Both the position numbers and the translations under genes were made by a program. Source: Candidatus Giovannonibacteria bacterium (GTDB lineage Bacteria > Patescibacteriota > Minisyncoccia > JACPKW01 > UBA11713). Taken from it: a stretch of DNA of 64,000 bases. Shown here in pieces: positions 3,580 through 42,685 of the stretch (positions within the stretch are counted from its first letter, which is position 1; the number at the start of each line of letters is the position of its first letter). A model generated the notes under the pieces. It saw only the letters and a list, made by a program, of their open reading frames with translations, made no database searches and was not told where the DNA came from. The DNA lies in contig JAHFOJ010000002.1 in assembly GCA_023266875.1 (NCBI GenBank), positions 3,163-67,162 on the forward strand, read 5' to 3'.

Positions 3580-3801
3580 ATGCCTGAAAATAAGGATAAA
3601 ATCATACGTCAGGGCAAAATAATAGAAGCCCTACCCAACGCAACTTTCCGAATCCTACTTGATGACGATAACCGTCCAATTCTGGGACATCTGGCGGGAA
3701 AGATGCGCCTTTTTTACATCAGGGTGCTGATAGGTGATAAAGTTAAGGTAGAATTATCGCCATATGACGAGACAAAAGGAAGAATTGTCCAACGGCTTTA
3801 A
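3580..3801 (+). CDS. infA: Translation initiation factor IF-1
   Basis: 73 aa. [59 protein letters not shown] matches the IF-1 S1-like fold sequence. Confidence 0.93.
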
Positions 3802-3818: not shown

Positions 3819-3932
3819 ATGAAAGTTCGATCTTCTGTCAAAAAAATTTGTACTTCCTGTAAAGTCGTGCGCCGAAAGAGACGCCTTTACGTGATTTGCA
3901 AAAATCCGAAGCATAAACAAAGGCAGGGATGA
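3819..3932 (+). CDS. rpmJ: 50S ribosomal protein L36
   Basis: Manual translation gives [37 protein letters not shown], a canonical L36 zinc-ribbon sequence. It is absent from the ORF track because it is under 60 aa. Confidence 0.92.
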
Positions 3933-4048
3933 GCCCCGTTAGAAATCGCGGATGATTAAGTAATGATATATCATGGAAAAATTAGTTTTTATTAATAATA
4001 ATTTAAAGCGTATGGCGCATTTTGCGTCTCCGTCCTATTTCTAACGAG

Positions 4049-4432
4049 ATGAGAATTGCGGGCACAAACATACCGGATAATAAACGCCTCGAAGTGGCGT
4101 TAACATACATTTATGGCATTGGCCCATTTTCCGCATTAAAAGCTTTGGGCACTTCAAAAGTTTCTCCGGATAAGCGCGCCAGAGATATCACACCAGATGA
4201 GATCAACCGCTTGCGCGACGTACTCGAAAAACAATTTAAGATAGAGGGAGAACTTCGCCGAGAAATGATGATGAATATCAAGCGTTTGCGCGACATCGGG
4301 TCATATCGCGGCATGCGGCATTCAAGAGGCCTTCCTACGAGAGGACAGAGAACCAAAACCAATTCCCGCACGCGAAGAGGCAATGTTCGAAAAACTATGG
4401 GATCAGGTAAACGCAAGCTGGATAAAAAATAA
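4049..4432 (+). CDS. rpsM: 30S ribosomal protein S13
   Basis: [25 protein letters not shown]...[19 protein letters not shown]. The true ATG is at 4049; the track's TTG start at 4022 lies inside a conserved RNA element. Confidence 0.93.
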
Positions 4433-4553
4433 TCCCGTTAGAAATCGCGGACGAATAAAATAATAATTATGATATTTATGAAGCAATCGAAATTTATAAA
4501 AACTAATTTAGTACGTAAGGCGTATTTTGCGTCTGCGTTCTATTTCTAATGGG

Positions 4554-4979
4554 GTGGGCAAAAAACGCATAATACAAAAAGGTGGGACAGATGATATCCG
4601 CGCTCGGGCGCTGGCGAAACTCCCGAAGAAAAAACTTTCTTTCGGCATTTTAAACGTTCTTTCGACATACAATAATACTATTATTTCTCTCGCTGATGAA
4701 GCTGGAAACACGATCATATCTTCGTCTTCTGGGGCGATGGGCTTTTCTGGGGCGCGAAAGGGCACTCCATACGCCGCATCAAAAGTGGCAGAGGTTTTGG
4801 CGGAACGAGCGAAACTTATGGGGGTTAAAGATATTGGAATTAAAGTAAAGGGGATAGGCGCCGGCAGGGAATCTGCCATTCGTTCTTTCGCGGCTCATGG
4901 CTTTAACATTCAATTTATTAGAGACATCACGCCGATCCCGCATAACGGACCTAAACCGGAGAAACCGAGGAGAGTCTAA
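4554..4979 (+). CDS. rpsK: 30S ribosomal protein S11 (probable GTG start)
   Basis: The ...NNTIISLADEAGNTIISSSSGAMGFSGARKGTPYAA... S11 signature is present. The in-frame GTG at 4554 sits immediately 3' of the conserved leader stem. Confidence 0.88.
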   Translation: MGKKRIIQKGGTDDIRARALAKLPKKKLSFGILNVLSTYNNTIISLADEAGNTIISSSSGAMGFSGARKGTPYAASKVAEVLAERAKLMGVKDIGIKVKGIGAGRESAIRSFAAHGFNIQFIRDITPIPHNGPKPEKPRRV

Positions 4980-4980
4980 T

Positions 4981-5595
4981 ATGGCGCGAATTCCATGTAA
5001 AATCTGCAGGCGTCTTGGTGTCTCAATTTGTGGACGCGAAAAATGCGCGATGAGGCGCAAACCCTACCCGCCCGGAGAACATGGGAGAGGATCACGCCAT
5101 TCACGCCGTTCTTCTTCAGAATTCGGCGCCCAGCTTAGGGAAAAACAAAAGTTGAAATTTCTTTATGGTCTTCGCGAAACACAATTTAGGAATTATGTCG
5201 TGGAAGCCTCGCAAAGAACAGGGAGCACATCAGAAATTTTATACCAGTTATTGGAATCCAGATTAGATAACGTTGTCTATCGGCTTGGATTTGCTTTTTC
5301 GAGAGCGCGCGCGAGGCAAATTGTGACTCACGGCCATATCTGGGTAAACGGCAGAAGCGTAAACATTCCGTCTTTCAGAACACGCAAAGGAGACATAATT
5401 TCCATTAGGCCCCAAAGCGCCGGCAAAGGGCTATTTAAAGATTTAGATATCCAATTAAAAAAATATAACGCCCCAGCGTGGATTGAATTAGACCGCGAAA
5501 AACGCGAAGGCAAAGTTCTTGGAGCCTCGGCGATAGAGCTCGAAGGCGCACTCGAATTAAACGTGAACGCGATCGTCGAATTCTATTCGCGATAA
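4981..5595 (+). CDS. rpsD: 30S ribosomal protein S4 (zinc-finger type)
   Basis: MARIPCKICRRLGVSICGREKC... and the S4 domain LDNVVYRLGFAFSRARARQIVTHGHIWVNGRSV. The ATG at 4981 is 1 nt after the rpsK stop. Confidence 0.93.
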   Translation: MARIPCKICRRLGVSICGREKCAMRRKPYPPGEHGRGSRHSRRSSSEFGAQLREKQKLKFLYGLRETQFRNYVVEASQRTGSTSEILYQLLESRLDNVVYRLGFAFSRARARQIVTHGHIWVNGRSVNIPSFRTRKGDIISIRPQSAGKGLFKDLDIQLKKYNAPAWIELDREKREGKVLGASAIELEGALELNVNAIVEFYSR

Positions 5596-17565: not shown

Positions 17566-17616
17566 ATTTCTAGTGCTTGAATCGGGAGCGCCTGCTACCC
17601 CCTATTTTTTTGCCAC

Positions 17617-17640
17617 TATTTACATATTCGTACGAGTTAC
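17617..17640. repeat. Copy A of the same motif, CTATTTACATATTCGTACGAGTTACCC, in the rplU/recR convergent spacer
   Basis: It carries the 20-nt stretch shared by copies A, B and D, at a locus 22 kb away from them. Confidence 0.5.
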
Positions 17641-17659
17641 CCTATTATTGTGGAAATTT

Positions 17660-39212: not shown

Positions 39213-39239
39213 CTATTTACATATTCGTACGAATACATC
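39213..39239. promoter_or_regulatory. Copy B of the repeated motif CTATTTACATATTCGTACGAATAC (palindromic core ATTCGTACGAAT)
   Basis: A 14-bp perfect palindrome TATTCGTACGAATA lies in the aspS upstream region, downstream of arsR. Confidence 0.5.
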
Positions 39240-39279
39240 ACCAACATTAGCAACTAACAATTACACACAAGCAGTCATA

Positions 39280-39561: not shown

Positions 39562-39570
39562 GAAAGGTTA

Positions 39571-39590
39571 CTTACAAATTCGTACGAATA
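39571..39590. promoter_or_regulatory. Copy C, the palindrome AATTCGTACGAATA, immediately upstream of the arsR start
   Basis: Seen directly. It lies 10-30 nt upstream of the ArsR ATG on the minus strand, between a TATAAG -10-like box and the start codon. Confidence 0.5.
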
Positions 39591-39663
39591 CTTCTTATAA
39601 AATACTTCTACATAAGTTCGGCATCAGATAATTCTAAATCTGTCTGTCGCGCTGCCTCTCAAT

Positions 39664-39690
39664 CTATTTACATATTCGTACGAATTACCC
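39664..39690. promoter_or_regulatory. Copy D of the motif, CTATTTACATATTCGTACGAATTACCC
   Basis: The 20-nt stretch CTATTTACATATTCGTACGA is shared across copies A, B and D; A and D share the flanking TTACCC. It sits between the HK stop and arsR. Confidence 0.5.
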
Positions 39691-39719
39691 GTTTAATTAG
39701 AAGCTGGCTTTATACTAAT

Positions 39720-42232: not shown

Positions 42233-42287
42233 AAATCAAGGATAGATCATTAAGAAGATAAAACCTGACGCGAACTATACCCAAATT

Positions 42288-42325
42288 ATCCCACAAAAAG
42301 CCCTTGGGAATAAGGGATAAAAAAA
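42288..42325. repeat. Direct repeat copy 1, TATCCCACAAAAAGCCCTTGGGAATAAGGGATAAAAA
   Basis: About 38 nt with 34/38 identity to copy 2, 360 nt away. It contains a CCCTT/AAGGG hairpin plus A/T runs. Confidence 0.55.
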
Positions 42326-42647: not shown

Positions 42648-42685
42648 TATCCCACAAAAAGCCCGTGGAAATAAGGAATAAAAAT
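42648..42685. repeat. Direct repeat copy 2, TATCCCACAAAAAGCCCGTGGAAATAAGGAATAAAAA
   Basis: See copy 1. Confidence 0.55.

Follow-up and report, generated by a model that had tools for sequence, protein, structure and literature searches.

A dispersed palindromic element at the start codons of Patescibacteria genes, with two copies in a ribosomal-protein operon

The 64,000-nucleotide stretch of contig JAHFOJ010000002.1 from a Candidatus Giovannonibacteria bacterium analyzed here (hereafter the window) contains a ribosomal-protein (r-protein) operon in which the rpmJ–rpsM and rpsM–rpsK spacers share nearly identical, complementary ends. These spacers are probably two independent copies of an element of Paceibacteria-type Patescibacteria that directly precedes the start codons of many unrelated genes. 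On balance, we interpret this element as a dispersed, non-autonomous palindromic insertion resembling a miniature inverted-repeat transposable element (MITE), which likely inserts at, or survives only at, gene starts and acts as a translational relay. As in MITEs, the element is small and lacks transposase coding, is bounded by terminal inverted repeats (TIRs) and is dispersed, with both filled and empty sites.

An earlier note on this DNA had described two spacers of about 115 nt each with shared ends, and both points held. The spacers measure 116 nt (rpmJ–rpsM) and 121 nt (rpsM–rpsK); the 5′ 18-mer CCCGTTAGAAATCGCGGA has exactly two matches in the 64-kb window (positions 3935 and 4434, with 0.10 expected), and the 28-nt 3′ motif likewise has two (positions 4019 and 4524, with 0 expected). 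A search of the window with an nhmmer profile of the element family found no third copy. Alignment of copies 1 and 2 gives 84% identity, with near-identical ends and a diverged interior. The same note took the element to be duplicated within the operon; the window copies are not each other’s closest relatives, and we rejected copy 2 as a local duplicate of copy 1, each interior being nearer to copies in other genomes than to its neighbor.

The family was sampled in two ways. One genome per GTDB species was scanned with the 5′ 18-mer (GTDB sample, at least 120 stretches), and metagenomes were scanned independently with the 3′ arm (metagenome sample, at least 120 stretches), giving at least 240 stretches with family copies from both scans. 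Paired counts refer throughout to the GTDB and the metagenome sample, in that order, among the matches listed, and loci are cited by L-numbers. The family consensus is [ATGNN]-Y-CCCGTTAGAAATCGCGGAC-(45-90 nt variable)-GTCCGCGTCCTATTTCTAACGGG-[RTGNN...gene]. RTG directly follows the 3′ arm in 111/119 and 113/115 copies. At both flanks of the element the start codon is followed by an identical pair of bases in 88/91 and 83/90 copies (171 of 181 in total), compared with a chance identity of about 35% by our estimate from the NN frequencies. The base before CCCG pairs as Y with R, the first base of the start codon, in 223 of 230 copies; the two are combined as T:A in 96 copies, C:G in 18 and T:G in one copy of the GTDB sample, and as T:A in 96, C:G in 13, C:A in five and A:A in one copy of the metagenome sample. 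When C precedes CCCG, the gene starts with GTG, while the upstream copy of the start codon remains ATG. Only three reversed copies occur among about 119 listed, and three copies (L083, L088 and L112) lie away from a start codon yet have flanking repeats.

Two kinds of variant were seen alongside this layout. The reversed copies (L057, L079 and the first copy of L127) have TTCAT on both flanks, and two of them are short variants of 74–77 nt. A subgroup (L017, L042, L055, the second copy of L070, and L113) has AC-N-TGT as its 5′ flank in place of ATGNN-Y, with only TG repeated and no in-register upstream ATG; most of its members retain an internal ATG open reading frame (ORF) ending at the TAA.

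Nearly all GTDB matches listed come from Patescibacteria metagenome-assembled genomes (MAGs), with up to five loci per genome. Depositor names comprise Kaiser-, Giovannoni-, Wolfe-, Lloyd-, Sungii-, Nomura- and Brennerbacteria, Parcubacteria and Paceibacterota, with many entries labeled ‘uncultured Saccharibacteria’, and many of the loci originate from Hainich and Rifle. In this sample, 119 of the 126 5′-arm matches have a 3′ arm 74–219 nt downstream, the remainder consisting of spurious matches in other phyla, solo arms and truncated loci; among metagenome copies, the 5′ arm is exact in 73/127 and within two mismatches in 114/127. The span from CCCG to TAA, 74–219 nt and mostly 105–116 nt, holds a sole ORF of at most 40 codons. 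Viral contigs gave one chance match, which had no 3′ arm. An ORF of at least 50 amino acids follows the 3′ arm in 104 and 102 copies. The 104 downstream proteins of the GTDB sample fall into 132 Pfam families, none present in more than three members and none a transposase; the genes include those for ATP synthase, FtsK, FtsW, Mur ligases, glycolysis enzymes and ribosomal proteins. Arms without a partner, whether 5′ or 3′, were also seen and appear to be copies that have decayed or lost a part; one of them, a 5′ arm at L102:2660-2690 (minus strand), leads straight into an ORF resembling that of a P-type ATPase.

The flanking repeat differs in sequence from site to site and matches the host gene, and L083 has its repeat away from any start codon. 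Where two different copies have inserted in tandem, the target is present three times (as ATGAG throughout in L200; as ATGAG, ATGAG and ATGAA in L160). Tandem pairs before one gene were located at L200:3480-3680, L160:11635-11880 (minus strand), L183:4101-4242 and L140:6131-6366, and the members of a pair have unrelated interiors in L200 and L160 and near-identical ones in L140. Closely similar copies occur at two genes of one metagenome in L200 and L160. In one Giovannonibacteria MAG (JAUYMO01), the copies at L037:5367-5496 and L110:3784-3913 have interiors that are 99% identical and precede different r-protein genes, namely an L6-like gene (VSRLAKKPI...) and an L13-like gene (MKKEIIIDAKNKRLGRI...), respectively; both directly follow the upstream TAA without an ATGNN repeat, as does window copy 2. 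Together, the tandem double insertions and the 99%-identical copies at different genes point to mobility, present or past.

The earlier note had suggested, as one example, that the stems form an r-protein autoregulatory leader, with S4 or S13 as the possible ligand. Taken as a leader specific to this operon, this proposal fits the stem itself and its location ahead of rpsM and rpsK, as well as copies elsewhere before rpmJ (L108, L115 and L123), rpmE (L035), rplF (L037) and rplM (L110), and the alpha-operon leader (RF00140) and S4 leaders also lie before rpsM and rpsK in the same operon. However, the element is absent at both sites in nine loci of six relatives whose S13 is 73–83% identical (L001, L002-L005, L006/L007, L008 and L010), so the paired ends are not conserved in orthologous operons, an outcome that the earlier note itself had named as refuting. 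The spacers of these relatives are 1–25 nt long overall (4–19 nt for rpmJ–rpsM and 1–25 nt for rpsM–rpsK), and their S11 begins with ATG-GGx-AAR-AAR at the exact site of GTG-GGC-AAA-AAA in the window. Rfam searches with the window region and a canonical copy, at the gathering threshold and at E ≤ 10, returned nothing relevant: Alpha_RBS (RF00140) scored 15.4 bits against a gathering score of 38, in a weak match at 4050-4078 that lies outside the element, and no other r-protein leader family was listed among the results. The element is found ahead of more than 200 unrelated genes, and the 132 Pfam families downstream likewise show that it is not r-protein-specific. Because it is missing from the orthologous operons and dispersed, we regard the r-protein leader as refuted and give it a vanishingly small chance.

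Two further observations were made at the same junctions in relatives. Long S13 homologs (144–148 amino acids) were considered as a sign of the same element and rejected, the extensions being gene-calling read-through of rpmJ in another frame; in P0006 and P0016 (144–146 amino acids), for example, the N-terminal extensions are artefactual and the called ORF starts within rpmJ (L007:334-384 and L008:804-860). In L009 (GCA_041643115.1), whose S13 is 83% identical to that of the window, an unrelated, longer hairpin repeat stands on both sides of rpsM (498-759 and 1144-1294). Its unit is at least 114 nt long, with copies that are 96% identical and a 15-bp stem (ACCCAGCCGTAGTTT/AAACTACGGCTGGGT) around an AT-rich 71-nt loop, and a separate inverted repeat with 25-nt arms lies between infA and rpmJ (L009, 287-366). 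The same operon junctions have therefore been colonized by different hairpin elements in a sister lineage.

As the earlier note had described, the ends of each spacer are complementary and would close a long stem around the AT-rich interior; this stem lies on the sense strand, directly before each start codon. Copy 2 is predicted to fold into 14 bp, a 4-nt bulge (UUCU) and 8 bp, at −37.3 kcal/mol (z = −5.1), with none of 200 shuffles as stable. Copy 1 folds into 10 bp, an asymmetric bulge and then 5 bp, at −27.5 kcal/mol (z = −1.7), and taken by itself is not convincing, because 13 of 200 shuffles match its energy. The pairing-preserving changes between the two copies were also found (U-G versus C-G and G-C versus G-U), but they are one-sided, with no double compensatory change. 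Six other family copies form the same closing helix (z = −4 to −5.8), and the RNAalifold consensus of the family agrees, extending the helix by one further pair to the U of the gene’s start codon. The predicted family helix thus comprises about 14 bp, a 4-nt UCCU bulge and then 7–10 bp, and pairs the A and U of the downstream start codon. At the DNA level, the TIRs have arms of 12 + 7 nt broken by the 4-nt bulge; the arms, including the TCCT bulge, are 91–100% conserved per position, whereas the interior varies in sequence and length. Such strict conservation of arms and bulge suggests recognition by some factor.

The second suggestion of the earlier note was an RNase III site. On this view the element would be an RNA-processing site resembling Correia elements, at which RNase III or another enzyme would cut the bulged helix and thereby separate the gene’s mRNA from upstream sequence or set its stability, the short ORF being incidental. 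We consider this explanation, which is compatible with mobility, unlikely. It agrees with the predicted helix, which in all copies examined has 19–24 bp and the conserved 4-nt bulge, with the conservation of arms and bulge by sequence and not by covariation, as for a protein recognition site, with the location of operon-internal copies exactly between stop and start codons, and with the reported cleavage of Correia TIR stems by RNase III (PMC10969869). It leaves unexplained, however, the 3-nt periodicity of element length and the threefold excess of frames open to the conserved TAA that are detailed below, and a cut in the stem would leave a leader of about 10–16 nt devoid of a Shine-Dalgarno (SD) sequence, not a leaderless AUG.

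Upstream of the element, −10-like boxes are commoner than SD-like motifs. The 3′ end of a TANNNT motif lies 5–9 nt before the upstream ATG in 55/90 and 39/88 copies, with a peak at 6–7 nt, whereas an SD-like tetramer is found upstream in only 3/88 copies. In sigma-70 promoters, transcription starts at a standard distance from the −10 box; with a −10-like box 5–9 nt before the upstream ATG, it would begin at or next to the A of this ATG. This placement implies that most host genes would have been leaderless before insertion and that the element may now form the first ~120 nt of the transcript. A promoter within the 3′ arm (TATTTC, 7 nt before the ATG) was considered and rejected, as C takes the place of the invariant final T and a −35 element is lacking.

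The frame of the upstream ATG is preserved through the element. Element lengths peak at 105, 108, 111 and 114 nt. In the GTDB sample, this frame stops at a TAA 4 nt before the gene in 51 of 92 copies, at an overlapping TGA (ATGA) in eight and continues as an in-frame fusion in one, while the 90 metagenome copies include 34 with the TAA, seven with the TGA and three fusions. Frame 0 is open to the 3′ end in 60/91 and 44/87 copies (104 of 178 together), compared with 3 and 0 for the other two frames, and with 18.5 and 15.2 copies (about 34 together) when interiors were shuffled. ATG ORFs of at least 20 codons that end at the conserved TAA occur in 77/116 copies, versus 5 and 9 in the other frames. 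Among copies lacking the upstream ATG, 19/27 have an internal ATG ORF, typically of 26 codons, that leads to the same TAA; both window copies are included here. The encoded peptides share a start (M-x-PVRNRGR), an internal block (I-x-x-N-[RQK]-[IV]-G-[FY]-G) and an end (SASYF), and searches of Pfam and NCBIfam with four element peptides found no family. It is the arms, themselves conserved at every codon position, that encode the conserved peptide ends, and the 3′ arm holds the last seven codons of the ORF. For the interior peptide, selection at the protein level was not supported, the codon-position entropies being flat with no third-position excess. Because the interior lacks this excess and the conserved ends are arm-encoded, we read the pattern as selection on an open frame, not on a peptide function.

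The opposite emphasis would make the element a leader-peptide attenuator recruited by the host to control a regulon of many housekeeping genes, in which the helix over the start codon would open or stay closed according to the signal-dependent behavior of ribosomes on the conserved short ORF (M-x-PVRNRGR ... N-R-I-G-F-G ... SASYF-stop). In erm and cat leaders, translation of the leader controls access to the next start codon, buried in a helix formed in part by the leader ORF, and the present element similarly has a stop codon 4 nt from the start, a start codon paired in the predicted helix, and conserved peptide ends with an internal conserved block. The arms have been kept over long divergence, for instance in the orthologous copies L016 and L025, in both of which the ORF is intact. 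Mycobacterial cysteine-responsive leaderless short ORFs provide a parallel in which a 5′-terminal AUG governs the next start and attenuates the downstream genes (bioRxiv 10.1101/834739). We nevertheless find an attenuator rather improbable: the interior has no third-position excess, the peptide ends are encoded by arms conserved at all codon positions, the long ORF is broken in one third to one half of copies, the peptides match no Pfam or NCBIfam family, and neither an obvious run of regulatory codons nor sensing codons are evident. Known leader-peptide attenuators are, moreover, locus-specific and evolved in place, unlike one portable cassette at hundreds of genes.

It is also conceivable, at low probability, that the element is purely a DNA-level repeat, whether related to repetitive extragenic palindromes (REP/REPIN) or to a recombination site, with the RNA fold and the ORF as by-products. 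REP/REPIN sequences, mobilized by RAYT transposases, are hairpin doublets of about 100 nt with conserved arms, a variable loop and many copies per genome, and the element shares these conserved arms, variable loop, length and copy number. Nor do substitutions in the 5′ arm favor changes that wobble pairing would tolerate (C>T 7 and A>G 5 versus G>A 8 and T>C 5). In the 3′ arm, by contrast, C>T opposite G outnumbers G>A opposite C by 33 to 12, which suggests wobble tolerance, the two arms pointing in different directions as to RNA- or DNA-level constraint. Other features fit a DNA-level repeat poorly: the orientation bias is near-absolute, the reading frame is preserved, and the Y:R pairing extends into the start codon, with GTG replacing ATG when Y is C. 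REPs are extragenic, lie mostly at the 3′ ends of genes without flanking duplications, bear no orientation or frame relation to start codons and have a cognate RAYT gene. With its position flush against the start codon, its flanking repeats and its fixed orientation, the element was rejected as a REP/REPIN, and no RAYT/Y1-transposase family is among the 132 Pfam families of downstream proteins. An integron attC site was likewise rejected. In attC, box R″ (RYYYAAC) precedes box R′ (GTTRRRY) and the AAC/GTT end bears the loop; in the element this order is reversed, with GTTAGAA 5′, TTCTAAC 3′ and the loop at the opposite end of the duplex.

Returning to a MITE-like insertion with a relay ORF, we infer a transcription start, translation of the short ORF, re-initiation and a mode of movement from the observed anatomy, dispersal, empty sites, repeats and frame and from the predicted fold. 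Insertion would leave the host start codon plus two bases on both sides, resembling a target-site duplication. The element would be co-transcribed with the gene, usually from a promoter with its −10 box 5–9 nt before the upstream ATG, which would become a leaderless 5′-AUG. In the RNA, the arms would form the bulged helix and pair the first two bases of the real start codon, while a short ORF would run through the element to the UAA 4 nt before the real start or to the overlapping UGA, its first codon being the upstream AUG or, where a copy lies inside an operon as in the window, an internal AUG. A ribosome on this ORF would melt the helix, reach the real start and re-initiate; with ribosomes delivered by the relay ORF, the insertion would thus not silence the gene. 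In the window, copy 1 would have been inserted into the overlap of the rpmJ stop and the rpsM start (ATGA), and copy 2 placed between the rpsM stop and the rpsK start.

Several points weigh against this interpretation. On the side of translation, interior codon-position entropy is flat (1.49/1.51/1.53), about 35–50% of copies with the upstream ATG contain a premature stop, and leaderless initiation ought to be impeded by a helix of −30 to −55 kcal/mol that begins at +5, except where ribosomes load during transcription. On the side of mobility, about 1.5 Mb of loci revealed neither a transposase nor a longer autonomous element bearing these ends, and no 5′-arm/3′-arm pair 300–3000 nt apart was present in any retrieved locus. 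The repeat is not fixed in length (about 3–6 nt), which is unusual for a cut-and-paste transposase, and several operon-internal copies (window copy 2, L037, L110 and L115) have no flanking repeat. Finally, the 91–100% conservation of the arms against diverged interiors suggests selection at each locus or recognition by a factor, and not the neutral decay of selfish DNA.

A bolder reading, which we put forward tentatively and consider rather less than likely, is that the element is a mobile cassette targeting the very first nucleotides of leaderless genes, where transcription or translation itself begins, and that the host has kept it as a shared 5′ module (helix, relay ORF and re-initiation) on dozens of housekeeping genes per genome. 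It is possible that the homing route could rely on the RNA 5′ end or on microhomology, and not on a classical transposase.

Among described elements, Correia elements (CREE/NEMIS) of Neisseria and enterobacterial repetitive intergenic consensus (ERIC) sequences resemble the present family in being about 100–200 bp long, lacking a transposase and having TIRs that fold into a long RNA stem. They also occur in many dispersed copies, often just upstream of genes, with flanking direct repeats, and are co-transcribed and affect the mRNA of the neighbor. No sequence similarity of either to the Patescibacteria element was seen. Correia elements insert at TA and at variable distances from genes, whereas the Patescibacteria element abuts, duplicates and pairs with the start codon and has a frame-preserved ORF ending 4 nt before the gene. 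Bypass elements (the T4 gene 60 hop and the mitochondrial byps of Magnusiomyces) are mobile hairpins inserted between identical take-off and landing codons, and the AUGNN repeated on both sides of our stem is reminiscent of these. The element differs from them in having no stop directly after the take-off codon and an open frame through the insert to a conserved stop, and we know of no precedent for bypass from the initiator tRNA. Rickettsia palindromic elements (RPE) are likewise mobile palindromes with an open frame, tolerated because translation passes through them (PMC10969869). However, RPE form in-frame fusions inside coding regions, while fusions are rare here (1/92 and 3/90 copies listed) and the usual layout is a separate upstream ORF stopping just before the gene. 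By analogy, the element would work most like a co-transcribed MITE (Correia, ERIC) combined with a leaderless upstream ORF, and would share its translatability with RPE. A 2024 review of prokaryotic MITEs mentions neither a start-codon-associated element nor Patescibacteria (PMC10969869). We found no match to the element in Rfam, Pfam or NCBIfam and no prior description of the arm sequence, the peptide or a start-codon element in open-access papers and bioRxiv, although one may exist elsewhere.

The genes and element parts of the window are listed in Table 1. By its S13 homologs, the organism belongs with Giovannonibacteria- or Paceibacteria-type Patescibacteria. The purine-rich end of rpmJ precedes the old ATG at 3929. 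TTG-start ORFs at 4022 and 4527, pointed out in the earlier note, do begin within the 3′ arm, but they are artefacts of one open arm frame (RPISN); alignment with the N-termini of S13 and S11 of relatives places the true starts at ATG 4049 and GTG 4554. The GTG of rpsK stands where all relatives examined have ATG. Its G4554 wobble-pairs with T4433 at the base of the helix and constitutes the sole T:G wobble among 115 GTDB-sample copies listed, GTG starts elsewhere going with C before CCCG.

Table 1. Coordinates of the operon genes and of the two element copies in the window
Feature	Coordinates	Strand	Remarks
infA	3580-3801		ribosomal-protein operon member
rpmJ (L36)	3819-3932	+	upstream neighbor of copy 1; stop codon TGA 3930-3932
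Element copy 1	3934-4048	+	rpmJ–rpsM spacer; nhmmer E = 5e-17
Copy 1, Y (C)	3934		
Copy 1, 5′ arm	3935-3953		followed by AT-rich interior
Copy 1, 3′ arm	4026-4048		GTCTCCGTCCTATTTCTAACGAG
Copy 1, 5′ direct repeat ATGAG	3929-3933	+	overlaps rpmJ stop TGA 3930-3932; recurs at 4049-4053
Copy 1, 3′ direct repeat ATGAG	4049-4053	+	first 5 nt of rpsM
Copy 1, upstream-ATG frame	3929-3955	+	stop included; 9 codons, 8-residue MSPVRNRG*; covers 5′ arm
Copy 1, internal short ORF	3973-4044	+	23 codons; ends at family-conserved TAA 4042-4044, 4 nt before rpsM ATG
rpsM (S13)	4049-4432	+	PF00416, E = 1e-30; ATG 4049, stop TAA 4430-4432
Element copy 2	4433-4553	+	rpsM–rpsK spacer; nhmmer E = 2e-17; no flanking repeat
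Copy 2, Y (T)	4433		directly after rpsM TAA
Copy 2, 5′ arm	4434-4452		followed by interior
Copy 2, 3′ arm	4531-4553		GTCTGCGTTCTATTTCTAATGGG
Copy 2, internal short ORF	4469-4549	+	26 codons, MIFMKQSKFIKTNLVRKAYFASAFYF*; alternative ATG 4478; TAA 4547-4549, 4 nt before rpsK GTG
rpsK (S11)	4554-4979	+	GTG start; aligned to N-termini of relatives
rpsD	4982-5595		follows rpsK in operon order; then rpoA, rplQ, rplM, rpsI

Two other repeats were noticed in the window. A direct repeat, CTATTTACATATTCGTACGA(A/G)TTACCC, is present in four copies with 69–91% identity (17616-17647, 39213-39244, 39568-39599 and 39664-39695), three of which are clustered within 500 nt (~39.2–39.7 kb), and is unrelated to the start-codon element. 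A 37-nt repeat, TATCCCACAAAAAGCCC(T/G)TGG(G/A)AATAAGG(G/A)ATAAAAA, occurs at 42287-42323 and 42648-42684, 361 nt apart, with 92% identity.

The usual view is that genomes tolerate mobile repeats only in the spaces between genes. The family described here occupies the very start codon of hundreds of essential genes and has features that would keep these genes expressed: the start codon is regenerated, the relay frame is open, and its stop lies 4 nt ahead of the gene. For annotation, it calls for caution, as gene callers extend S13 and S11 into the element, as with the TTG ORFs of the window. It also raises the question of which enzyme places DNA so precisely at gene starts. If our interpretation is correct, the element would allow leaderless initiation, hairpin melting and 70S re-initiation to be tested in a natural system from a phylum that, to our knowledge, is not yet genetically tractable, and would provide sequence evidence that many Paceibacteria genes are leaderless. 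Ultra-small Patescibacteria have few regulators; were the homing-module reading to prove true, these bacteria would possess a portable, lineage-wide form of translational control.

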